Source: a virus. From it: a stretch of 64,000 bases of DNA. The position numbers were made by a program, and so were the translations under genes. Below are positions 5,535 to 56,627 of the stretch, in pieces. Numbering within the stretch: the first letter of the stretch is position 1; each line of letters starts with the position of its first letter. The DNA lies in the UHGV virus genome UHGV-1882326. One strand, 5' to 3'. The notes under the pieces were generated by a model. It was not told the DNA's origin, ran no database searches, and saw only the letters and a program-made list of their open reading frames with translations.

Positions 5535-5780
5535 TTAATAAGCGAAAATACTATTCACTGTTAAAGTGCCAGTTTGTTGGGCTTGTGGATTAGTGGTATA
5601 AAAAGTTGTACCAGTTAATACTTGATTTACATTGGCGTTACCAGTTAATTCAAGAGTTCCAATTTGTTCATCATCAGAACCTAAACCAAGAAAGATATAA
5701 CCTTTCATAACTTCTGATTTGGTTGCAGTCAATTCAGAAGTATCAACGCCACCAGATATAAAATTATTAATTATAGCCAT
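5535..5780 (-). CDS. short paralogue of the fibre N-terminal domain
   Basis: 81 aa. Its N-terminal ~65 residues align with the N-terminus of the adjacent 445-aa Gly-rich fibre (GGxxSxxATAxxNVLKGYTFVG.DSDDxQTGTLELTGNA, TFYNTD motif). Confidence 0.45.
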   Translation of the reverse strand: MAIINNFISGGVDTSELTATKSEVMKGYIFLGLGSDDEQIGTLELTGNANVNQVLTGTTFYTTNPQAQQTGTLTVNSIFAY

Positions 5781-5795
5781 ATGATACTCCTTTCT

Positions 5796-7133
5796 TTATT
5801 TGAAACGGATAAGGATAATTCCAGAACCACCAGTACCACCGTCCCTACCACTATAAGCATAGCCACCACCGCCACCACCTGCTCCACCACCAGTATTAGC
5901 AGAACCATTGCCGCCCGCACTAGCGAAAATGTAATCTGGTTCACTAGAAGAACCTCCACTTCTATAGGTGCCATTACCACCATGACCGCCACCTATAGAA
6001 CCACCAGAGCCGCCCCAGTTACCCGGTGTTAAAGCACCTAATCCTTGTCCACCAGAACCACCACCGCCAGAATAAACAGTACCAGAACTTTCACCAAATG
6101 GGCGAGTTGTTGTTCCTTGACCTAATCCTTGACTATTTGTGACACCAGGACTATTACCACCATTGCCACCATTACTACCGCCATTATTTCCATAAGTATA
6201 TCCATACGTTGAACCACCTACTCCACCGCCACTACCGCCACAACTAGCACGATAATATGGTGAAGTAGTTTCACCGTCACCGCCATATCCACCAGAAGCA
6301 GTACATAATGTAGTTCCGCTTCTTGTTACAGAAGTAGTGCCACCAGTACCCCCATTAGCGCCGCCACCGCCACCAATAGAGCATACTAAAGTTTGTCCAG
6401 AAGATACACTAACATTAGAAGCAGTTTTAGTGTAGCCACCACCGCCACCACCGCCACCATAAGTTGAATTTCTATCTCGACTTTCTCCATGCCCACCACC
6501 GCCACCACCACCAACACAAAATATATCAACTTGACTATATCCACTTGGTACAGTTACATTTGTACTACTTGTAATCGTCTGTGTATATGTACTACCACTT
6601 ACAATATTACCTTGTATTGGTGTTCCTATCAATTCCCCATTACTTGTCACACAATAACTATACACACTTATGTAATACCTAGTTCCAAGATTAGGAAACC
6701 CCAAAGTAACACTACTTCTACCACCACTTGTAGTATTATTTCCAGTACCTTTATAAATCTGAGTACCACCAGTCCCAGGATTTCCACTTGTGCTATATTT
6801 AACATATACACCACTATAAGGTCTACCAGTAGTTTGTATAGGGTTAGACCAAGTAACAGTAATATTTCTACCACTAGAAACAGCTAAGTTTAAATTACTT
6901 ACATTACCAACTTCCATTATGCCAGTAACCTTAATTTTAGCGTCTGTATTATAAAACGTAGCACCTTTGATAACATGACTTTCTATAGCGTTTCCAGTCA
7001 GTTCCAATGTGCCAGTTTGTATATCGTCACTATCTTTTCCTACGAATGTATATCCTTTTAATACATTATTTGGTTCAGCAGTTGCAATATCAGAACTACC
7101 ACCACCAGTAGGAAATCTATTCATAATTGACAT
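5796..7133 (-). CDS. glycine-rich tail fibre protein
   Basis: 445 aa with long poly-Gly/Ser/Asn tracts (GGGGGGGHG, GGGGGGGGYTKT and GGxGGxGG runs), resembling the Gly-rich domain of phage fibres. The antisense ORFs here are artefacts of G-rich codons. Confidence 0.6.
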   Translation of the reverse strand: MSIMNRFPTGGGSSDIATAEPNNVLKGYTFVGKDSDDIQTGTLELTGNAIESHVIKGATFYNTDAKIKVTGIMEVGNVSNLNLAVSSGRNITVTWSNPIQTTGRPYSGVYVKYSTSGNPGTGGTQIYKGTGNNTTSGGRSSVTLGFPNLGTRYYISVYSYCVTSNGELIGTPIQGNIVSGSTYTQTITSSTNVTVPSGYSQVDIFCVGGGGGGGHGESRDRNSTYGGGGGGGGYTKTASNVSVSSGQTLVCSIGGGGGANGGTGGTTSVTRSGTTLCTASGGYGGDGETTSPYYRASCGGSGGGVGGSTYGYTYGNNGGSNGGNGGNSPGVTNSQGLGQGTTTRPFGESSGTVYSGGGGSGGQGLGALTPGNWGGSGGSIGGGHGGNGTYRSGGSSSEPDYIFASAGGNGSANTGGGAGGGGGGYAYSGRDGGTGGSGIILIRFK

Positions 7134-7160
7134 AAAATCACCTCTTTTTGTTAATAAAAC

Positions 7161-7577
7161 TTATCCAATAATCAGCACTTGGATGGGTAAATCTTCCGTT
7201 GGCTTATTCTTATAAGCTGTAAGAGTAATCTGATTTTCTGCTTGTGCTGTACACTGAATGATACATTTCATGGATAGTTTAATTTGGTCTAAGGTTGCAT
7301 TTGAAGCTAAACCAACCTCAATATTATTCTCAGCCGTAACACCATTTACTGTTAAAGTTAATGTATATGGTGCATTATCACCTTGCCAATCTGCACTAGG
7401 AGCATTTACTTGCACACTTACAGATTTAAAAGCACCATTTTCTACATTTTTTATTTTAGTCTGAGGATATAATTGGTCATATCCAGTATCAGTTTTTACA
7501 TTCATTTCTATGTTATAACTTGCCATATTTTCACCAACTTTCTTTATTAAACTTCGATAGATAAAATTTTCCACCAT
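7161..7577 (-). CDS. hypothetical tail protein
   Basis: 138-aa ORF in the tail gene cluster. Confidence 0.35.
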   Translation of the reverse strand: MVENFIYRSLIKKVGENMASYNIEMNVKTDTGYDQLYPQTKIKNVENGAFKSVSVQVNAPSADWQGDNAPYTLTLTVNGVTAENNIEVGLASNATLDQIKLSMKCIIQCTAQAENQITLTAYKNKPTEDLPIQVLIIG

Positions 7578-32761: not shown

Positions 32762-33721
32762 TCATTGATTTCGTGACCGCTCCGCAGAATCAGAAATGGC
32801 TTCTTCACTTTGAGGTCTACCAACTTGTCCACTACCCCCACTCATGGTATGAATAGACAAAAGTTGTGATAAATTGTCTAAGAAATCACTATTATGTGCT
32901 TCTTCCAACATTCTCTCAAAATCCATAGGTTTATATCCAAAAGCAGAAGCATAAGCACTTGAATTAAGCACCATACCCACATCTGCTAATTTCATAATAG
33001 CATCTTGCTTCTTTTTACGCCAAAATGGTTGTGTACATCCATCAAACGTAAACTTAAACTTAAATTGTTTAGTTTTCTGATTAGCATAGAACTCTAAGAA
33101 ATTGTTAAATTGAGTATATAATTTAGCTACAATCTCATAATCAGCAGTAATAGCCGCTTGAAGTTCTTCGTTTGACATTCTATCCGTAGCGTAAATTAAA
33201 CGGCTTGCAGAACTACCATATCCCACTGTATCTTTAGCGGCAGTAGTAGCCATATCCGTATTTTTATCCTCAAACTGTTTAAATTCAACTTCTTCAAGAG
33301 GTAAGGCAATAGAACGAACAATTTTATCTTGTGTCATAGAGTTTTTCAATCCACTAGCAACAAGTTTCATTAATCGTCCTAATGTACTTGGTTTGACTGC
33401 AAATCTATCAGCAACCTCACCAGATTTTGCAGAATCTTGCATTTTCATCTCACCGTAAAGTATACCAAAAGCACTGGCAATATCTTTATTTTTTTGTAAC
33501 TTTGCAATCTCTGTGTTATTGAAAACATTCTTTAAATACGGAGCCATAAAAGGAACACTTGCAAAATTACTTGTGTCAAACTTGAAAGCCCAGAAACCAT
33601 CATTAGGACTTGTCTGGTGATAAAGAGTAAAAGTGCCGTCACGATTACTTAAACCATTTGACGGAATATAATCTTTAAAATCTTTACCATCCCATACTTC
33701 TCTAAGGTATTTCTTAAACAC
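32762..33721 (-). CDS. portal protein, C-terminal portion (putative exon 2)
   Basis: 319-aa ORF with a GTG-initiated ORF call. The reading frame stays open further upstream, to 33748. Together with the 214-aa ORF at 35528..36172 it gives a ~530-aa product in the canonical position between TerL and the scaffold. Confidence 0.5.
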   Translation of the reverse strand: MFKKYLREVWDGKDFKDYIPSNGLSNRDGTFTLYHQTSPNDGFWAFKFDTSNFASVPFMAPYLKNVFNNTEIAKLQKNKDIASAFGILYGEMKMQDSAKSGEVADRFAVKPSTLGRLMKLVASGLKNSMTQDKIVRSIALPLEEVEFKQFEDKNTDMATTAAKDTVGYGSSASRLIYATDRMSNEELQAAITADYEIVAKLYTQFNNFLEFYANQKTKQFKFKFTFDGCTQPFWRKKKQDAIMKLADVGMVLNSSAYASAFGYKPMDFERMLEEAHNSDFLDNLSQLLSIHTMSGGSGQVGRPQSEEAISDSAERSRNQ

Positions 33722-33837
33722 AGGAGCATAACACTGAACCTCACATAACTAAAATTACGTAATTCTTGGGAACTTCCAACTATTGTCAGAATATTTGCCA
33801 AGCTAACCCCGTAGTTCCTACGGTTTTTATATATTAT
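33722..33837 (-). ncRNA. IS605-family right end / omega-RNA scaffold region downstream of tnpB copy 1
   Basis: In minus-sense, the sequence after the tnpB stop is CCGTAGGAACTACGG (hairpin) ... AATTACGTAATTTTAG. It is conserved with the region downstream of tnpB copy 2 (GGTAGGAACTATCGG ... AATTACGAGG ... TTTTGTAG). Confidence 0.5.
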
Positions 33838-34962
33838 TTAAACACTTAAAATTCTCAATCCTTCATTCAAAATATTAATAGAAGCATTATTATCTCTATC
33901 TAATTTTGAACCACAGTTAGAACAAATCCAGTATCTAATCTCAACAGACTTTTTACCACCATTAACACCACAACAATGACAAATTTGAGAAGAAGGAAAA
34001 TATCTATCAATTACAGATAATATCTTTCCATACCATGTAGATTTATAAGTCAACATTCTACGAAATTCAGACCAAGAAACATCATTCACATGTTTATTAC
34101 GAACATTTGAGTCTGTACTTTTCATAGATTGAACATCTAAATCTTCAATACAAATAATATCATATTGTTTTACAAGATTAGTAGTCAATTTCTGTAAAAA
34201 GTCTTTACGTTGATTAGATATATGTTTTTGTAAATTTGCAACTTTAATTCTTGCTTTATTCCAATTAGAACCACCGATTGTTTTTCTCAATAACTCTCTT
34301 TGTAATTTAGCAAGTTTCTTTTCTGATTTTTCATAAAATCTAGGATTTTTAATCTTAACACCGTTAGATAAAATTGCAAAATCTACAATTCCTAAATCTA
34401 TCCCAACATTTTTATTTGTTTTTGGATATTGTGGAAATTCTATATCAGCGCAACATAATGAACAATAATAATGTCCGTTAGGTTCTTGTGATATAGTAGC
34501 ATTAAGTATTCTTCCTTGCGGAATTTGTTTATCGCGAATTTTTACACAACCTAATTTTGGAAGTTTAATATGTTTATTTTCAAATCTTATATTACCACCA
34601 GCTGTAGTTTTCATATAACTTGTAGTATAAGATTGATATCTATTTTTCTTAGACTTAAATTTTGGATACCCAGTATGCTCTTTAAAGAATTTTTGATAAG
34701 CATTATCTAAATTTTTTAATGAATTTTGTAAAGAACATTTATCTGGTTCTTTAAGCCATTCATTTTCTTTCTTTAATTGAGTAAGCATTTTACTTGTGTC
34801 ATAAAAGCTTAAACTCTTTTTATTTTCTTTATACTCAGTTATCTTTTTATCTAAAAAATAATTATAAACATATCTACAACAACCAAAAGTTTTTTGTATT
34901 AATTCTTGTTGTTTTTTATTCGGATAAATTCTATACTTAAAAGCTTTTTCCAACAATATCAC
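33838..34962 (-). CDS. tnpB: TnpB (IS200/IS605-family OrfB; RNA-guided RuvC-like nuclease)
   Basis: 374 aa. The N-terminus KAFKYRIYPNKKQQELIQKTFGCCRYVYN is the OrfB_IS605 helix. A RuvC-like split domain is followed by a C-terminal zinc finger CHCCG...CSNCGSKLDRDNNASINIL. Confidence 0.9.
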   Translation of the reverse strand: MILLEKAFKYRIYPNKKQQELIQKTFGCCRYVYNYFLDKKITEYKENKKSLSFYDTSKMLTQLKKENEWLKEPDKCSLQNSLKNLDNAYQKFFKEHTGYPKFKSKKNRYQSYTTSYMKTTAGGNIRFENKHIKLPKLGCVKIRDKQIPQGRILNATISQEPNGHYYCSLCCADIEFPQYPKTNKNVGIDLGIVDFAILSNGVKIKNPRFYEKSEKKLAKLQRELLRKTIGGSNWNKARIKVANLQKHISNQRKDFLQKLTTNLVKQYDIICIEDLDVQSMKSTDSNVRNKHVNDVSWSEFRRMLTYKSTWYGKILSVIDRYFPSSQICHCCGVNGGKKSVEIRYWICSNCGSKLDRDNNASINILNEGLRILSV

Positions 34963-35527
34963 TTCCTTTCATAAATTAACTTATAACATAAACCTATATA
35001 AATGTCAAGTTAAATTATGAAAAGAATTATTTTAGTTTAAATAACATATAAAAACCGTAAGTTACTTTAGTTATATTTGGAGGTTGTCGTTCACATAGGC
35101 TCGCTAGTTCCTATGCAGTTCTCTAATGAACTTCTTGTACTTTCATACAAGCACAGACTATATCTTATCCCTCACCATTATGTGTTAGGGCCTACCCACT
35201 TCCACACGCTTGTGTGTACTTCCCTCAAGAGGAATAGTCGTTGAAGTTTTCCTTTCGGACTTACCTGCTAATTGCCTATTTTTCAGTGTTTAGGATTTAA
35301 CCATGCACCATTCATTCAATTTTTTCTACTTTCGTCACATTCACGCTTATACCATTTAAGCACATTTTTGTGTTGTTTAAGGTATTACGTTGTAGTTTGA
35401 ATGACTTTAAGGTTTCCTAGCAATTCAAGTAGTATTGGATGCCAAAAGCATCTCTACGTGCAAGTTTCCCTACACGCTGACTATTTCGTAAAACACTTAC
35501 TTATTCATACGAATATGTATTCACGAT
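34963..35527 (-). ncRNA. group I intron ribozyme core (5' part of an IStron-like element)
   Basis: 565-nt ORF-free segment, GC-richer than the AT-rich gene background. In minus-sense it contains an R-like element UUCAACGACUAUU (complement of plus 35231..35246) and an S-like element AAGAUAUAGUCU (complement of plus 35155..35170), which can pair GACUA/UAGUC to form P7. Boundaries are approximate. Confidence 0.6.
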
Positions 35528-36172
35528 TTAATCAATGTCCACTCCTTGCATACCAATGAAGTACATCATGTCGAAGTCGAATAATAAACCACTTTCAAAA
35601 TACCCAGTTAAAATACATCTATCTTGTGGTAATGTTTGCAGAGCATATTTAGGATTATTTCTATCCATGTTTGTTCTGAAACTTGTATAATGTACTTCAT
35701 GCCTTAAAAGCTGTTTTACAACTTTTTTAAATTCTCCTTTGTAATCAAAATTATCAAGAAATTTATAAATTCTTGCTTTATCTGCTTTATAATTATCAGA
35801 CTTATAATCTTCTTTCTTAGCGTTCTTACAAGTAATCTGCAAATCAAAAGAAAGGAGATTTGTGTAGTATTCAATAGTTCTGTTATAAATCATATCGAAT
35901 ACTTCCATAAACTCACTATAAGCCTGTAAATTTGTAGCACCAGTTTTATACTCACTTAAAGCCTTTATAATATCGTCATATTTTGGAATTTTAGCATTAT
36001 TGTTAAGATTAACCAGATTTTGATTACTTAACCATGGACTATATACTCCAAAACTATCCAATCCATATAAACTCTGAGCAAAACTTACTACATCATAAAC
36101 CTGTTGTTCTGATAACATAACAGGTTCTTCTACTTTAGGAGTTAATCTTTGACTATTTTTCGTAGTTCTCAT
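35528..36172 (-). CDS. portal protein, N-terminal portion (putative exon 1, ORF runs into intron)
   Basis: 214-aa ORF immediately downstream of TerL. Its stop lies inside the intron-like segment. Confidence 0.5.
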   Translation of the reverse strand: MRTTKNSQRLTPKVEEPVMLSEQQVYDVVSFAQSLYGLDSFGVYSPWLSNQNLVNLNNNAKIPKYDDIIKALSEYKTGATNLQAYSEFMEVFDMIYNRTIEYYTNLLSFDLQITCKNAKKEDYKSDNYKADKARIYKFLDNFDYKGEFKKVVKQLLRHEVHYTSFRTNMDRNNPKYALQTLPQDRCILTGYFESGLLFDFDMMYFIGMQGVDID

Positions 36173-36243: not shown

Positions 36244-38124
36244 TTAGAACACAAGTTGGTCTAACTCATCTAAATTGGTATCTCTTTGTTCATCTACAGC
36301 ATACTTATCGCCTATTAAGGTTGCAATATGGTTTCCGTAACTCAAAGCTACAATTTTATCCTTTGTCGCACTATTTCTGTTAGGTTCTGATAATTTCAAA
36401 ATACCGTTATTCCATGTTTGAGTTAAACTAATAGCTTCTGACATCATTAATGCAGTTTGAACATATGGCAACTTAATATTAACTTTTTCCTCAGAACTCA
36501 TAGTAAGATAATTTACATCTTCTTCAAGTTCTGTTTCAATCGTTAATTCATCCACCAAAAATTCAATCATTTCATTGTCTAGGGCTTTCTTTAAATCAAG
36601 CCACATTAAACTATTTCGTTCACTTGTACCAACAATAGGTATAATACATGGTATAGCTTCTGCATCAACTGTTTTGCCTTTAAGTTCTTGAATTTTAGCA
36701 TCTGGAACTATCTGTAAAGCAGATTCATAACAAACTGTAAATCCATGTGGATTCCAATTACTTCGTGATGGGTGTTCAAAGGGTTTAGATAACTCTGTAT
36801 AATAAAGAGTACCACCGCTTCTTTCGTCCATTACGATATAATCTGCTTGGTAATCCCAAAAGAACTCTCTAATCTTTTGTTGAAATCCCTCACTATCACT
36901 AGCAGGGTGCGTTCCAATATATTCTACTTTTCGTCTTGTCTTACCATCTTTCATAATGACAGACATACAACCAATAACACTATTATCGTTATCGTTTGTA
37001 TTGCTGTTTACAAAAGCATAATCAATGAAAAGTAAACGTTTTTCAAATTCACCTTTAGGTCTGTTACCTAAATCAGTTGACATAAATATATCCATAGGCG
37101 TAGGTGGTTTATAGGCTTTTTTTATCACTTGATTCTTTCTGAAATCTTCAAGTAAGAAGAAAGCACCCTCTGTTTCACCATACATTTCATTCAAATCTTC
37201 TGTTACAAAGTCAATATCTGAATCAAATTCTTTATCATGCCAGTAATCAGCCCATGTTTTAAGGTTAAATAAAATTGCAAGGAAAATATTAGATGCAAAG
37301 AAATTATATGTATGTTTCGTTTGTGTCATACACTTTTGAACTACAAGTTTAAATTCTTTCCAAAACCATTCATGTTTAAATCTAGCAGATGTAATATATG
37401 CTGTTTTACACTGTTCAATCCAACGTGGTAATGTTTTTCCGTCTTTATCCTTGTATTCGTCACGTAAGGTATAAGCCGCTTGTCTTGGATGCGCCATTTT
37501 AGAAAATACAGAATCAAGTATTGTCTTTTTAAGTAATCGACACTCTTCATATATAAGAAAAGTACTTCTCTCTCCCCTACTTGATTCCAAACAAGGCAAT
37601 ACAGTTATCATACTTCCGTTAATCTTTTTCAAGTCTACTTCTATAGCATCATTATTATAACGAAAGACAATATCTCCGTTATCATAATAATATTTTAAAA
37701 CAGATGAAAGTTTTTTACATAATTCATCTTCCATTTTCTTTTTAACCATCTTAGTAGCTTGGGGAATTGTGGAAGAAGTAATAACAACTTCGGCATATGG
37801 AAATAATAATGCGTGAACCATTCCTGCAAGAGCAATAATAAATGATTTACTTCCACCTCTGCTGCAAATTCCATACCATACTTGTGATATTCCAACTAAA
37901 TACAACATAACATGCTGAAACGGATAAAGTTTTATCTTTAATCTTCTTTCAGCATATATATTCCAATTACGTCTATAGAATGTTGTCCATTCCTTAATAT
38001 TTTTCTTTCTTTGTTCCCATGGTAATCTTCTGTCAGTTTTTTTCTTTTCTTCTTGTTTCTTCTTTCTTTTTTCTACAAGGCTAATAATATCTATATCTTT
38101 GTTTTCCTCTAACATAGACATCAC
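36244..38124 (-). CDS. terL: terminase large subunit
   Basis: 626 aa. Walker A-like motif GICSRGGSKSF. The C-terminal nuclease region has acidic motifs (FIDYAFVNSNTNDNDNSVIG). It is translationally coupled to the upstream gene. Confidence 0.85.
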   Translation of the reverse strand: MMSMLEENKDIDIISLVEKRKKKQEEKKKTDRRLPWEQRKKNIKEWTTFYRRNWNIYAERRLKIKLYPFQHVMLYLVGISQVWYGICSRGGSKSFIIALAGMVHALLFPYAEVVITSSTIPQATKMVKKKMEDELCKKLSSVLKYYYDNGDIVFRYNNDAIEVDLKKINGSMITVLPCLESSRGERSTFLIYEECRLLKKTILDSVFSKMAHPRQAAYTLRDEYKDKDGKTLPRWIEQCKTAYITSARFKHEWFWKEFKLVVQKCMTQTKHTYNFFASNIFLAILFNLKTWADYWHDKEFDSDIDFVTEDLNEMYGETEGAFFLLEDFRKNQVIKKAYKPPTPMDIFMSTDLGNRPKGEFEKRLLFIDYAFVNSNTNDNDNSVIGCMSVIMKDGKTRRKVEYIGTHPASDSEGFQQKIREFFWDYQADYIVMDERSGGTLYYTELSKPFEHPSRSNWNPHGFTVCYESALQIVPDAKIQELKGKTVDAEAIPCIIPIVGTSERNSLMWLDLKKALDNEMIEFLVDELTIETELEEDVNYLTMSSEEKVNIKLPYVQTALMMSEAISLTQTWNNGILKLSEPNRNSATKDKIVALSYGNHIATLIGDKYAVDEQRDTNLDELDQLVF

Positions 38125-40958: not shown

Positions 40959-42248
40959 ACCTTACACTCCTAGTGAACTACTACAAAATTAAAAACCTCG
41001 TAATTTCTTGCTTCAACGTCCTCGTAACCTACTAACTCCACAAGCGTAAATTCCGATAGTTCCTACCGTACTATTTATTATTAAGTTGCACTTAAAATTC
41101 TTAGTCCTTCATTTAATATATTAATTGCGGCATTAATATCTCTATCATGCACAGTACCACATTTAGAACATCTCCACTGACGTACAGATAAATTCTTTGT
41201 ATCTTTATTAATATAACCACATACATTACAAGGTTGACTTGACTTTGTAAATCTATCAATCTTTATATATGTGCGTCCATTCCAATCAGATTTATAACTT
41301 ATCTGTCTTGTCAATTCATACCAACCACAATCAAGTATTGATTTTGAAAGATTATGATTTTTCACCATATTAGAAATTGCTAAATCTTCACTAACTATTA
41401 CTTGGTTTTCGCTAATAAGTTTATATGAAATTTTATGCAAATAATCTATTCTGGTATTTTTAATTTTTTCATATACTTTTGCAAGTTTGATTCTTTGCTT
41501 CTGATAATTCTTACTACCTTTTTCTTTATGAAAAAGTTTACGCTGTTCTTTAGCAAGTTTTTTCTCATATTTTTTAGTAAGTTTAAGATTATCAAACTTT
41601 TCTCCATCAGAAGTTATAAGTAAATCCTTAATGCCTAAATCAATTCCAATAGAATTGTTTGTATGCTCTAATGAAATATGTTCTGTTTCTATTAAAATAG
41701 ATACAAAATATTTACCAGAGGGAACTTGCGAAATAGTAGCAGATTTAATTTTTCCAGTAAATTCTCTATGAATTTTTGCTTTCACCCATTTAAGTTTTGG
41801 AAGTTTAATTTTATTGTTATCAAAAGAAACTTCAATATTATTATTTGCGAAATTTGTTTTATAAGATTTTTTATTATCTCGTTTGCTTTTGAACTTTGGA
41901 TAACCAGTATGTTCTTTAAAGAATTTTTGATAAGCGGAGTCCATATTATAAATGGAATTTGTCAAAGACCATTTATCAACCTCTCTAAGCCATTCATATT
42001 CTTTTTTTAGTTGTCTATTACAATAGTTATTCAAATCAATTTTACTCATAGAAACACTTTCATTTTTATATTTATTGATTTTAAGATTTAAACACTGATT
42101 ATAAACAAACCTGCAACAGCCAAAAGTTTTTTGGATTAAAATTTTTTGTTCTTTGTTTGGATATAATCTGTATTTATAGGCTTTTAACATTTACTTATCA
42201 CCTCCAATCTATTTATATTATATATTCTACTACATTTTCATTAACTTG
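40959..42248 (-). mobile_element. IS605-family (IS1341-like, tnpB-only) insertion in an intergenic site
   Basis: It carries tnpB copy 2, a 58-bp upstream region with a -10-like TATAAT, and a 122-bp 3' region conserved with the 3' region of copy 1. No tnpA is present. Confidence 0.6.
41081..42190 (-). CDS. tnpB: TnpB (IS200/IS605-family OrfB)
   Basis: 369 aa. It starts MLKAYKYRLYPNKEQKILIQKTFGCCRFVYNQ and ends in the zinc finger CNVCG...[19 protein letters not shown]. It is paralogous to copy 1. Confidence 0.9.
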   Translation of the reverse strand: MLKAYKYRLYPNKEQKILIQKTFGCCRFVYNQCLNLKINKYKNESVSMSKIDLNNYCNRQLKKEYEWLREVDKWSLTNSIYNMDSAYQKFFKEHTGYPKFKSKRDNKKSYKTNFANNNIEVSFDNNKIKLPKLKWVKAKIHREFTGKIKSATISQVPSGKYFVSILIETEHISLEHTNNSIGIDLGIKDLLITSDGEKFDNLKLTKKYEKKLAKEQRKLFHKEKGSKNYQKQRIKLAKVYEKIKNTRIDYLHKISYKLISENQVIVSEDLAISNMVKNHNLSKSILDCGWYELTRQISYKSDWNGRTYIKIDRFTKSSQPCNVCGYINKDTKNLSVRQWRCSKCGTVHDRDINAAINILNEGLRILSAT

Positions 42249-43152: not shown

Positions 43153-43956
43153 TTACAAATATAAGCTAAACAATTCTTTTTGTGGAGCATATTCTCCATA
43201 ATATTCTTTTTCAGCTATAAGTCTTGTTTTTATAGCTTCTTCTTTTGTATCAAATCTTCCTAAATTTATTCTTTTATAATTATACCCTATTCTAGCTATC
43301 CATTTATTTTCTCTCTTATTATAACAAACACCAGAAACACCAGAAGTATTATTTTTATGTGTTGAAGCATTTTTCGCATTTTCGCTAGGAGAACAAATTC
43401 TTAAATTATTTTCTGTGCAATCATAAGTATTTCTATTTATGTGGTCTACAATTTTATCTTTCATTATTCCATTTGTTTTTGCAACTTCCACATCTTTAAA
43501 ATATATTAATCTGTGTAATATTAAATTTTCTCTTGTTTCTCCTTTTTTGTTTCGATTATCTCCTAAATGCGCTCTGGCATATTTTTTATATGCGAACCAA
43601 TAAAATTGAGAAACCAACTCATAATTTTTTAAATCTATTTTTACTTTTTCTAATGAATTATTAAAACATAAGAAGCAGTAATCTTTTCCTTCTGGAAAAA
43701 TATATTTATTTTCTTTTTTACGGCTTTCTGAAATTTTATTTCTTCTTTCTAAATTTCTTTGTTCTTTATTGCACTCACAATCTATAATTTTATTATTATT
43801 AAGATAAGTTCCTTTTATTGCTTGTACTCTACCACATAATTTACATTCACAGTCAAAATAGGATATTTTATTTTTACTACTTAATTCTTCGTTTATTTTT
43901 ATTACATACCATGTATCAAATGTTAAGCCTTCTAATTGTAATCTCTTATTTGACAT
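43153..43956 (-). CDS. HNH homing endonuclease with AP2 DNA-binding domain
   Basis: 267 aa. HNH motif VDHINRNTYDCTENNLRICSPSENAKN. AP2-like segment SGVSGVCYNKRENKWIARIGYNYKRINLGRFDTKEEAIKTRLIAEKEY. Confidence 0.75.
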   Translation of the reverse strand: MSNKRLQLEGLTFDTWYVIKINEELSSKNKISYFDCECKLCGRVQAIKGTYLNNNKIIDCECNKEQRNLERRNKISESRKKENKYIFPEGKDYCFLCFNNSLEKVKIDLKNYELVSQFYWFAYKKYARAHLGDNRNKKGETRENLILHRLIYFKDVEVAKTNGIMKDKIVDHINRNTYDCTENNLRICSPSENAKNASTHKNNTSGVSGVCYNKRENKWIARIGYNYKRINLGRFDTKEEAIKTRLIAEKEYYGEYAPQKELFSLYL

Positions 43957-54184: not shown

Positions 54185-54256
54185 AGGGCATTAGCCAAGC
54201 GGAAAGGCAAAACACTTTGACTGTTTCATGCGTAGGTCCGAATCCTACATGCCCTG
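54185..54256 (+). tRNA. tRNA-like element, possible tRNA-Gln(UUG) with atypical T-loop
   Basis: A cloverleaf can be drawn with a 7-bp acceptor stem AGGGCAT/ATGCCCT and a D-arm GCC-aagcggaaa-GGC. The anticodon stem AAACA/TGTTT carries the loop CTTTGAC (anticodon TTG). The T-arm GTAGG-TCCGAAT-CCTAC has C where the near-universal U55 is expected. Confidence 0.45.
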
Positions 54257-54286: not shown

Positions 54287-55084
54287 ATGAATACTAATAT
54301 TAAATATTATGAACGTAAAGTTCCAATAGTTGATACTTATTCTGTTAAAGAATTAGAAGAAATTGTGAAAAATTCATATTCTTTTAAAGAAGTAATTTTA
54401 AAATTGGGATATAAAACGCAGAATGGAAGTAATATAAAAACAGTAAGAAACAGATTAGAAAACTTAAACATTGATTATAGTCATTTTGCTTCTACTATGC
54501 AAATAAAAAGAACCTATGAAAATGTATTTTGTAAAAATAGTACAGCTACACAGCATGTTTTAAGACGGTGGTATAAGAAAATAAGTAATGATAATATTTG
54601 TACTATTTGCGGACAGGATAAAATCTGGAATAATAAAGAATTGACTATGATTTTAGACCACATTGATGGCGACAATCATAACAATGTAACTTCAAATCTA
54701 CGGTGGATTTGTCCTAATTGCAACAGTCAGTTGCCTACATTTGCAGGCAGAAATTTAAGAAAAGGTGAAAAAACTGATAATAGTAATATTGGTTATTCTC
54801 CTACAAAAATTAGAAATGTAAAGTTAAAACATACAAGAGAAAAGAAAATTTGTCCTATTTGCAACAAAAATATCCTTTCTAACAGTGATAATAAAATGTG
54901 TATTGATTGCTACAAAAATTATCAATCCAGAAATATTCCTGCTAAAGAAGAGTTAGAAAAATTAATTTATAATACGCCTTTTGTAAAAATTGGTAAAAAA
55001 TACGGGGTATCAGATAACGCTGTAAGAAATTGGTGTAAGAAATACGGCTTACCTTATAAATATAATGATTTACACAAAAGATAA
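54287..55084 (+). CDS. HNH homing endonuclease
   Basis: 265 aa. It carries the motif CTICGQDKIWNNKELTMILDHIDGDNHNNVTSNLRWICPNCNSQ plus extra Cys4 clusters. It is flanked by tRNA-like genes. Confidence 0.75.
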   Translation: MNTNIKYYERKVPIVDTYSVKELEEIVKNSYSFKEVILKLGYKTQNGSNIKTVRNRLENLNIDYSHFASTMQIKRTYENVFCKNSTATQHVLRRWYKKISNDNICTICGQDKIWNNKELTMILDHIDGDNHNNVTSNLRWICPNCNSQLPTFAGRNLRKGEKTDNSNIGYSPTKIRNVKLKHTREKKICPICNKNILSNSDNKMCIDCYKNYQSRNIPAKEELEKLIYNTPFVKIGKKYGVSDNAVRNWCKKYGLPYKYNDLHKR

Positions 55085-55189: not shown

Positions 55190-55263
55190 GGAACAATATT
55201 TCAACTGGTTAGAAAGTTCGGCTCATAACCGAAAAGTTATAGGTTCGAGTCCTATTTGTTCCA
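55190..55263 (+). tRNA. tRNA with CAT anticodon (elongator Met or Ile-lysidine type)
   Basis: Acceptor GGAACAA/TTGTTCC, D-stem TTTC/GAAA, anticodon stem TTCGG/CCGAA with loop CTCATAA (CAT at 55224..55226), T-arm ATAGG-TTCGAGT-CCTAT, discriminator A. It is not initiator-like, having a 1:72 G:C pair and no GGG/CCC in the anticodon stem. Confidence 0.8.
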
Positions 55264-55515: not shown

Positions 55516-56627
55516 ATGTTGGTAGCATACAAATACAGATTGTATCCGAATAAAGAACAACAAGAATATTTTGCTAAATGTTTTGGGTGTGTACGATTTA
55601 TCTATAATCGTATGCTTTCAGATAAGATTGACTATTATAAAGAAACAAAGAAAAAGCTGAATAATACACCTGCTCAGTACAAGAAAAAGTTTGAGTGGCT
55701 AAAAGAAGTAGATTCACTTGCATTAGCAAATGCTCAAATGCTCAAATGAATTTGCAGACAGCCTATAACAATTTTTTCAAATGTCCAGAAGTGGGTTTTC
55801 CAAAATTCAAAAGCAAGAAGAATAATCACTTCTCTTATACTACAAATAATCAGGGAGGAAACATTTATGTGACAGACCGATACATAAAACTCCCTAAGAT
55901 TGGACTTGTTAGAGTTCGGAAACATAGAGATTTTGAAGGACTAATTAAGTCTGTTACTATTTCTAAAAGTCCGTCTGGTAAATACTTTGTTTCAGTATTA
56001 GTAGACCAAAAAGATAAAGAAAAATTAATTCCAAACAATAACCAAATTGGAATTGATTTAGGTATTAAAGAATTTTGTATTACTTCTGATGGAGAGATGA
56101 TTCAAAATCCAAAGTTTCTTAGAAAGTCTGAAAAGAAATTAAGAAAATTACAAAAGGATTTATCTCGTTGTCAAAAAGGAAGTAAAAATAGAGAAAAATG
56201 CAGAATTAAAGTCGCAAGACAACATGAAAAGATTGCAAATCAACGTAAAGATTTTCTACATAAGTTATCTAGGCGATTTATTAATGAAAACCAAATCATT
56301 GCATTAGAAACTTTGAAAATTAAAAATATGATGAGTAATCATAAATTAGCAAAATCAATAGCAGATGTATCATGGTCTGAATTTGTAAGACAATTAGAGT
56401 ATAAGGCTCAGTGGTATGGTAGAGAAATCGTAAGGATTGATACTTGGTATCCATCAAGTCAGATATGCTCTAATTGTGGTCACAAAGACAGAAGAAAGCC
56501 ATTATCAGTAAGAGAATGGATCTGTCCTAATTGTGGTACACATCATGAAAGGGATATAAATGCAGCTATAAATATTCTTAAAGAAGGTTTGAGAATTAAA
56601 ACGGCAGGAACTGTCGAGATAGTCTAA
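55516..56627 (+). pseudogene. tnpB: tnpB copy 3 (IS605-family), frameshifted by an 8-bp tandem duplication
   Basis: It is split into 55516..55749 (MLVAYKYRLYPNKEQQEYFAKCFGCVRFIYNR) and 55695..56627 (RuvC-like domain plus zinc finger CSNCG...[19 protein letters not shown]). The sequence TGCTCAAA occurs twice in tandem at 55731..55746, and removing one copy restores a single ~370-aa frame. Confidence 0.85.

Follow-up and report, generated by a model that had tools for sequence, protein, structure and literature searches.

A TnpA-less IStron, very probably of the CdISt1 type, in the portal gene of a phage related to Enterocloster phages

Knowledge of IStrons goes back to 2000, and they have been studied almost entirely in the chromosomes and plasmids of bacteria. 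Braun 2000 and Hasselmayer 2004 are reportedly the sources on CdISt1 and the other group A IStrons. In this group, represented by elements of C. difficile and by the 1779 nt CcISt1 of Clostridium/Enterocloster citroniae, an IA2 ribozyme occupies the 5' part and an IS200/IS605 tnpB the 3' part (Tourasse 2014, PMC4227781). The signature of the group is insertion after TTGAT (or ATTAT/TTTAT), a U as the last exon base, and a TCAG end (PMC4227781; restated in PMC13565253). According to the published IStron mechanism, the splice sites coincide with the transposon ends, and splicing is set against the formation of omega-RNA (PMC10690162). This antagonism between splicing and guide RNA was demonstrated experimentally in 2023-24 for CboIStron, a member of group B (PMC10690162). 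Group B IStrons of C. botulinum phages had been listed in 2014 (PMC4227781). Here, we analyse the genome of an uncultivated phage related to Enterocloster phages (UHGV virus genome UHGV-1882326). In the window, i.e. the whole stretch of 64,000 nucleotides to which all coordinates refer unless stated otherwise, the portal gene is interrupted by what is very probably a TnpA-less IStron of group A (CdISt1-type, IS200/IS605).

The portal is encoded by two open reading frames (ORFs), one of 214 aa at 35528..36172 and one of 319 aa at 32762..33721, both on the minus strand and 1.8 kb apart, as reported in an initial annotation of this DNA. The two ORFs come next after TerL (36244..38124, minus strand), which was identified by its match to PHROG 2. 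Neither portal half alone has a match in Pfam. The joined halves match PHROG 2739 ('portal protein') with E 2e-37 over residues 62-532, and the match spans the junction. Over their full length, the joined halves are 73% identical to the portal of Enterocloster phage PMBT24 (OQ326496.2), which is intact and has 541 aa. Both exons are open and in frame, and there are no other lesions compared to the intact PMBT24 protein. The GenBank phage collection contains no close relative of the whole region, and exact-protein look-ups returned no record for the two portal ORFs or for TnpB.

Alignment of the two halves to intact homologues, as proposed in the initial annotation, located the exon junction. 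A scan of IMG/VR with the spliced portal protein gave 16 loci. In ten close relatives from this database (L003-L007, L011 and L015-L018), with 91-99% nucleotide identity to the window, there is no insert at the site, and base 35531 is joined to base 33733. PMBT24 reads ...GVDID/CYDPIF (GAT/TGT TAT) at the same place and is likewise uninterrupted. Instead of the two genuinely separate genes that would have spoken against an intron, the homologues thus have a single portal gene at the site. In the window, the junctions read ...GAC ATT GAT/TAAATCG...GAGGTTCAG/TGT TAT GCT. On the left (...GACATTGAT/TAAATCG), the element is inserted directly 3' of TTGAT, so that the last exon base is a U. On the right (...GAGGTTCAG/TGTTAT), it ends at 33734 with TCAG as the terminus. 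There is no target duplication, the empty alleles join exon 1 to exon 2, and the sole ambiguity is one shared T.

These data shift the element from the originally proposed 35545 to 33722 to 35530 to 33734. The sequence ...AAUUUUAG (33749), which had been taken for the 3' end, is present, but it is not the terminus, since the true end ...GAGGUUCAG lies 15 nt downstream at 33734. The downstream portal frame is indeed open back to 33748, as had been stated, because the 15 extra bases from 33748 to 33734 are in frame by chance. They are intronic and have no counterpart in any intact homologue. A 3' end at 33749/33748 (...AAUUUUAG/UUAUGUG) was rejected, because it would add the residues LCEVQ, which are found in no intact portal.

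The 5' part of the element matches the Rfam group I intron model (Intron_gpI, RF00028) over its full length, with 67.1 bits (E 2.7e-16) against a curated cut-off of 50 bits. The match was obtained when the region 33500..35800 was scanned with laxer filters. A whole-window Rfam scan at the gathering threshold returned two tRNAs only and missed the intron because of its fast filters, and a 57-kb scan of the relatives missed the IStron copies, though GIY-YIG introns were detected. Default Rfam scans thus miss introns of this type, and therefore the lack of a match in a long scan does not signify absence.

The fold of the ribozyme is supported by covariation. We aligned the window copy and 11 homologues from related phages, bacterial genomes and C. 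difficile, from the last six exon bases through P9.1. RNAalifold recovered P2, P2.1, P3, P4, P5 with its extension, P6, P7.1, P7.2, P8, P9 and P9.1 from the 12 sequences, with compensatory changes in 43 of 92 pairs. P1 and the P7 pseudoknot were entered by hand before pairs were counted, which brought the total to 105 pairs in 22 helices. Standard pairs account for 96% of the 1253 pair cells, compared to 33-41% when the 3' partners were slid by 1-3 columns. Changes on both sides occur in 48 pairs, and none of 500 shuffles reached the observed values. P7, which the initial annotation had predicted from an R-like and an S-like element, is paired (GACUA/UAGUC) in all 12 sequences, with a compensatory UA-to-CG change in three of them. 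The P1 core pairs are retained in 11-12 of the 12, and the final intron base is a G (G33734). P10 pairing with exon 2 was discarded as a general feature, as it amounts to just 4 bp here and to none at the other sites discussed below. The G+C content of the ribozyme core (38%) exceeds that of the window (31.5%) and of tnpB (26%), as the description of a GC-richer segment had implied.

The second part of the element is a full-length tnpB, as annotated, with three Pfam domains typical of TnpB (Table 1). The product matches the ISDra2 TnpB structures (PDB 8H1J, 8BF8, 8EXA) with E 1e-95. The RuvC residues D189/E273/D357 align with the catalytic D191/E278/D361 of ISDra2, and C328/C331/C347/C350 with its zinc-finger cysteines. 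The gene is intact and retains its catalytic motifs. The real start codon is more likely a TTG at 34956 or 34953, downstream of the ribosome-binding site AAAGGAAG, than the GTG from which the gene was called.

The third part, a conserved 3' tail, resembles an omega-RNA scaffold. RNAalifold on 18 elements predicts 27 pairs, with compensatory changes in 13. The terminal motif GAGGTTCAG is found 100-130 nt past tnpB in dozens of bacterial copies. A candidate pseudoknot between GGAUU (33861..33857) and GGUUC (33740..33736) matches the published omega-RNA pseudoknot in position (PMC10690162). The tail also has a weak Rfam match to Ref70 ('Enterococcus sRNA 70'; 33740..33829, minus strand, E 0.015), and this small RNA family may be derived from an IS605 or IStron right end.

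The intactness of all these parts bears on the possibility that the insertion is dead, so that the portal is broken or made as two polypeptides, and the contig belongs to a defective or decaying phage or prophage. The copy lacks tnpA and part of the left-end hairpin, and the occupied site is found in one assembly only, which would fit such decay. However, every ribozyme helix is intact, the core shares 98-100% identity with the copies of other phages, and the open exons and the tnpB described above do not look decayed either. Moreover, sister phages carry the element in the essential TerL and portal genes, which is hard to square with an element that does not splice. We therefore consider a dead insertion highly improbable.

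With its TTGAT target and TCAG terminus, the element fits the signature of group A. The same two traits and the absence of an ORF A set it apart from group B (IS607). The sole ORF within the element is tnpB, and there is no intron ORF of the GIY-YIG, HNH or LAGLIDADG type. Relatives of TnpB were sought in one genome per species. The protein is 94% identical to the one on a metagenome-assembled genome (MAG) contig that has the same phage TerL insertion as the relative L004, 70-78% identical to proteins from Eubacteriales, Mediterraneibacter, Eubacterium and Clostridium genomes, and 57-59% identical to those of over 20 C. difficile copies. An nhmmer search with just the intron part gave 210-227 bits for over 20 C. 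difficile copies, all of which follow TTGAT, start with TAAA... and have the internal guide sequence AUAGUCAG. The architecture of ribozyme, downstream tnpB and conserved 3' tail, together with this homology to C. difficile elements, upholds the original classification as a CdISt1-type IStron. Shared with the CdISt1 group are the target, the end, the lack of a target duplication, the internal guide sequence AUAGUCAG, and nucleotide homology in both intron and tail; a full tnpA is mostly absent there too. In contrast to that group, the element is found in phages, where it interrupts portal and terminase genes, and the left-end hairpin of the window copy is truncated. Unlike the C. difficile copies, its subfamily has a 27-bp AU-rich helix around tnpB. 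A further CdISt1-type IStron occurs in the unannotated GenBank record of Clostridioides phage ES-S-0173-01 (CP067352.1, locus L002, 2833..4734); it follows CTTGAT, ends in GGAGGTTCAG, and has a TnpB of 58.7% identity.

Like CbISt3 and CbISt4 of the C. botulinum phages c-st and D-1873 and the CboIStron of Zedaveinyte et al., which are IS607-family elements of group B, it is an IStron on a phage or plasmid, with splice sites that equal the transposon ends and an omega-RNA that overlaps the 3' splice site (PMC4227781, PMC10690162). Unlike the window element, group B has a serine-recombinase TnpA, a GG-ending target or TGGG target-adjacent motif (TAM), a CGG end, and a G at the 5' splice site. With ISDra2 of the IS200/IS605 family, the element shares the catalytic triad, the zinc finger, TTGAT as TAM and target, and a guide read beyond the right end, whereas ISDra2 has a tnpA but no ribozyme, and is not known inside essential coding sequences. 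Phages also have classical group I introns that encode homing endonucleases, for example those of T4 td, Twort and SPO1 (compare PMC3984707), and the GIY-YIG intron in TerL of the relatives L008 and L014 is of this kind. The element resembles them as a self-splicing intron in an essential gene that is expected to spread among co-infecting phages by a double-strand break at the intron-less allele. It differs in its nuclease, which is directed by RNA and owes its specificity to the adjoining exon, so that one element can occupy unrelated sites as long as they have a TTGAT.

A transposase gene was not found: tblastn with the Y1 TnpA of CdISt1 detected nothing in the element or in the whole window, and the gap between P9 and tnpB is 171 nt only. 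In some C. difficile copies, a full Y1 TnpA is located between ribozyme and tnpB. Since most described CdISt1 copies are without a full ORF A (PMC4227781 Table 1; PMC10690162), the absence of tnpA does not disqualify the element from group A. The left-end hairpin, GTGAC-TTTA-GTCGTG, sits in the P1 loop of most copies, including those of L003, L004 and C. difficile. In the window copy, 10 nt of this hairpin are missing, while the L015-type and L055 copies have other sequence in its place. Because of this truncation, the window copy can probably no longer be mobilised by TnpA. The missing tnpA and the truncated hairpin also argue against restoration of the portal at the DNA level, in which a TnpA acting in trans would remove the element without a trace from some of the replicating genomes, which would then supply the portal mRNA. 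IS200/IS605 excision is scarless and would create the same junction as splicing (PMC10690162), and the related phage L014 has a complete tnpA-tnpB IS605 element. Nevertheless, a covariation-supported ribozyme would then be needless, and we judge excision to be an extremely improbable explanation.

Copies of the element with 90-92% identity occupy three other sites among the close relatives (Table 1), and the element is thus mobile within the phage lineage. All eight phage copies end in GAGGTTCAG, and tnpB is intact in seven of them. Copies inserted after TCGAT have an altered internal guide sequence, UAGUCCGAA, which can pair with UUCGAU with one bulged base. Empty alleles usually differ from the target by a synonymous change in the pentamer, to CTGAT, TTGAC, TAGAT or TCGAC. 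The few empty alleles with TTGAT are those of L004 at the site in the gene upstream of TerL (38171/38170), and of L006 and L007 at the TerL site (37210/37209).

The distribution of the copies is relevant to a refinement of the IStron interpretation, namely that the element no longer functions as a transposon but as a group I intron with TnpB in the role of homing endonuclease, an RNA-guided counterpart of the homing-endonuclease introns of phages, in which the IS605 ends are relics. A review from 2026 proposes this role for TnpB in TnpA-less IStrons, where it awaits experimental validation (PMC13565253). The lack of tnpA, the truncated left-end hairpin, the intact tnpB in 7 of 8 copies, and the finding that alleles with the right pentamer at the four sites are mostly occupied would all be in agreement with it. 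Four sites among near-identical phages, however, require transposition and not homing alone, L003 and L004 keep the left-end hairpin, and no susceptible empty allele is seen for the window's own site. This refinement can be entertained, though the balance tips somewhat against it.

In addition, tnpB is enclosed by a helix. A blastn self-match revealed an inverted repeat on either side of the gene. The helix core of 27 bp (31 bp with an extension) is fully paired in the phage copies. In three bacterial relatives, 25 of its 27 positions are paired, with compensatory changes at nine positions, whereas slid controls have 8-14 of 27 paired. In the window subfamily, duplex energies fall far below those of shuffled controls, which is not so in the C. 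difficile copies. In the 2014 survey, group A helices are short, with 6-10 balanced pairs, and long AU-rich helices are assigned to group B only (PMC4227781), so that the long helix is a peculiarity of the subfamily. As its 3' arm holds the 5' strand of stem-loop A, helix and stem-loop are mutually exclusive. A hypothetical promoter (Table 1), located between the 5' arm and tnpB, is retained in the copies, apart from L006, where 7 nt are deleted. Transcripts that begin at this site would contain neither the 5' arm nor the ribozyme. This arrangement suggests, as a hypothesis, two RNA classes with different fates, and it is plausible that the 27-bp helix is a switch between the splicing and guide-RNA fates.

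In analogy to published IStrons, the element most likely works as follows. A late read-through transcript would be spliced at U35531/U35530 and G33734/U33733. The predicted exon junction, ...GACAUUGAU/UGUUAUGCU (also represented as GACAUUGAU/UGUUAUGCUCC), reproduces the sequence of intact portals, and splicing would join ...GVDID to CYAPVF..., giving a full-length portal of 537 aa. Translation of unspliced RNA would stop at the TAA that opens the intron. TnpB would bind an RNA made up of the 3' tail and, as a guide, roughly 16-20 nt of exon 2 (33733..33714), and would cut intron-less portal alleles that have TTGAT and the matching sequence (TTGAT+TGTTATGCTCCTGTGTTT; TTGAT+TGTTATGCTCCTGTGTTTAA). 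In a mixed infection, repair from the IStron-bearing genome would then copy the element in (homing). Jumps to new TTGAT sites would need Y1 TnpA in trans, either from the host or from a co-resident IS605 element. Splicing and guide-RNA formation are expected to exclude each other, as published for IStrons, and the long helix would sequester one strand of omega-RNA stem-loop A. The competition between the two processes, which the initial annotation had postulated, thus stands in principle, but it had already been published and is not new (PMC10690162).

Several points weigh against this model or parts of it. We infer splicing, TnpB activity and homing from published work on IStrons. The occupancy of the window site rests on one assembly, because the occupied junction was not found in IMG/VR or the JGI metagenomes, where two 17-mer matches were to unrelated sequences. 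At the portal site of the window, all ten relatives and PMBT24 have TAGAT and not TTGAT, so that the TTGAT of the window is derived. No susceptible empty allele was found for the window copy, so that this insertion suggests transposition de novo and not homing. Nor is TTGAT depleted in the genes of the phage, with 17 occurrences observed and 17.5 expected from synonymous shuffling, and for this reason genome-wide selection for avoidance of the pentamer is not claimed. The candidate pseudoknot pairs of the tail are invariant, and hence lack support from covariation. Finally, a sigma-70 consensus scan omits the promoter-like site, the -10 box of which ends in G, and the hits in the region are not above chance.

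Table 1. Coordinates of the IStron, its parts, the flanking exons and the further insertion sites
Feature	Position	Strand	Basis or remark
Whole IStron, 1797 nt, starts TAAATCGTGAA..., ends ...GAGGTTCAG	33734..35530	-	Empty sites; the copies at the three further sites have the same ends
Portal exon 1, 214 codons	35531..36172	-	Uninterrupted homologues join at exactly that base
TTGAT, last five bases of exon 1	35535..35531	-	IS605 target site, TnpB TAM and P1 5' strand
Internal guide sequence UAGUCAG	35477..35483	-	Pairs with exon UUGAU and intron UA (P1), U.G at the splice site
Group I ribozyme, P2 to P9, IA2 type with P7.1 and P7.2	35134..35500	-	Rfam and pair counts
P7 5' strand GACUA	35235..35239	-	Inside R-like element 35245..35233
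P7 3' strand UAGUC	35156..35160	-	Inside S-like element 35166..35155
5' arm of enclosing helix	35035..35061	-	Self-match, duplex energies, pairing in 6 distinct elements
Promoter-like site TTGACA-17 nt-TGnTATAAG (hypothesis only)	34980..35008	-	Seen in the sequence; between 5' arm and tnpB
tnpB, 374 codons from GTG	33838..34962	-	Pfam HTH_OrfB_IS605, OrfB_IS605, Cas12f1-like_TNB
Omega-RNA-like scaffold (transposon right end), terminal UCAG	33734..33870	-	RNAalifold, conservation of terminal motif
3' arm of enclosing helix	33817..33843	-	Covers tnpB stop codon and 5' strand of stem-loop A
Stem-loop A	33823..33809	-	Omega-RNA-like tail
Stem-loop B	33802..33765	-	Omega-RNA-like tail
Stem-loop C (right-end hairpin, with covariation)	33761..33742	-	Omega-RNA-like tail
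First 20 nt of exon 2 (UGUUAUGCUCCUGUGUUUAA), predicted guide portion of omega-RNA	33714..33733	-	Published layout (PMC10690162) and element boundary
Portal exon 2, 323 codons and stop, begins TGT TAT GCT (C-Y-A)	32762..33733	-	Empty-site comparison
Site in 296-aa gene upstream of TerL	38171/38170		Occupied in L003, L006; target TTGAT
Site in TerL	37210/37209		Occupied in L004, MAG contig L019; target TTGAT
Site in portal, 39 nt upstream of window site	35570/35569		Occupied in L015-L018; target TCGAT

The window and the related phages contain other mobile elements. Searches of the window with the intron (nhmmer and blastn) found no second IStron copy. Two further tnpB genes, at 41081..42190 (minus strand) and 55516..56627 (plus strand), are intergenic, and their products are 47-49% identical to the IStron TnpB. 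The former is intact (369 aa), the latter is frameshifted, and both were rejected as IStrons, because there is no group I ribozyme upstream. In L003, the RNA motif RAGATH-18 (RF03064) is located at 7000..7072 (70.6 bits), directly downstream of a 397-aa TnpB ORF (L003 5756..6946), and a weak match (25 bits) is present in the window at 41005..41044 (minus strand), just downstream of the intact intergenic tnpB. RAGATH-18 thus seems to be the omega-RNA of this clade of TnpB. A group I intron of another kind, with scores of 87-96 bits and a GIY-YIG-like ORF extending to about 3300, interrupts TerL in two relatives of 70-75% identity (L008 2074..2390 and L014 2030..2360), at positions equivalent to 36827/36758 of the window. 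The region after the portal is an insertion hot spot in the relatives. Just after the portal, L014 has the complete IS605 element (tnpA and tnpB, 5831..7356), L005 a free-standing GIY-YIG-like ORF (6605..7555), and L004 a 449-aa cysteine-rich ORF of unknown type (5562..6908). In the window, two ORFs at 43153..43956 (minus strand) and 54287..55084 (plus strand) resemble, by eye, HNH/AP2-type homing endonucleases, and the latter adjoins two tRNA genes (54185..54256 and 55190..55263). The TerL protein also matches three partial PHROGs of 'unknown function', over residues 12-227, 305-609 and 398-607. The boundary at 305 coincides with the IStron site in the TerL of L004, and these PHROGs may have been built from intron-split terminase fragments.

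The new aspect of the IStron is its setting, with one family at four sites (a TerL-adjacent gene, TerL, and two in the portal) in near-identical phages. The statement in the initial annotation that no such element had been reported in a portal gene agrees with our full-text literature searches, which found no IStron in a portal or terminase gene, and with the absence of the words 'portal' and 'terminase' from the supplementary tables of the 2014 survey (PMC4227781). It does not extend to phages as such, since CbISt3 and CbISt4 had already been reported there (PMC4227781).

A more far-reaching interpretation of this setting is that the element acts as a programmable gene drive. The exon-guided TnpB would cut the portal or terminase alleles of co-infecting relatives, repair would copy the IStron in, and the helix would serve as an RNA switch. 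The helix would be confined to late read-through transcripts with the ribozyme, in which it would open stem-loop A and draw the 3' splice site to the core, and the shorter transcripts from the internal promoter would fold the guide RNA instead. We regard such a drive as speculative and, on the present data, rather unlikely. If this were true, RNA-guided intron homing and competition between phages would be known from nature for the first time.

The group A IStron described here has consequences for annotation, because portal and terminase genes that are split by IStrons get miscalled as two genes. For the biology of the family, phages are a natural arena for homing, as mixed infections bring occupied and empty alleles together. 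Near-identical phages that are polymorphic at four sites in packaging genes thus offer a comparative and experimental system for the study of TnpB-driven homing.

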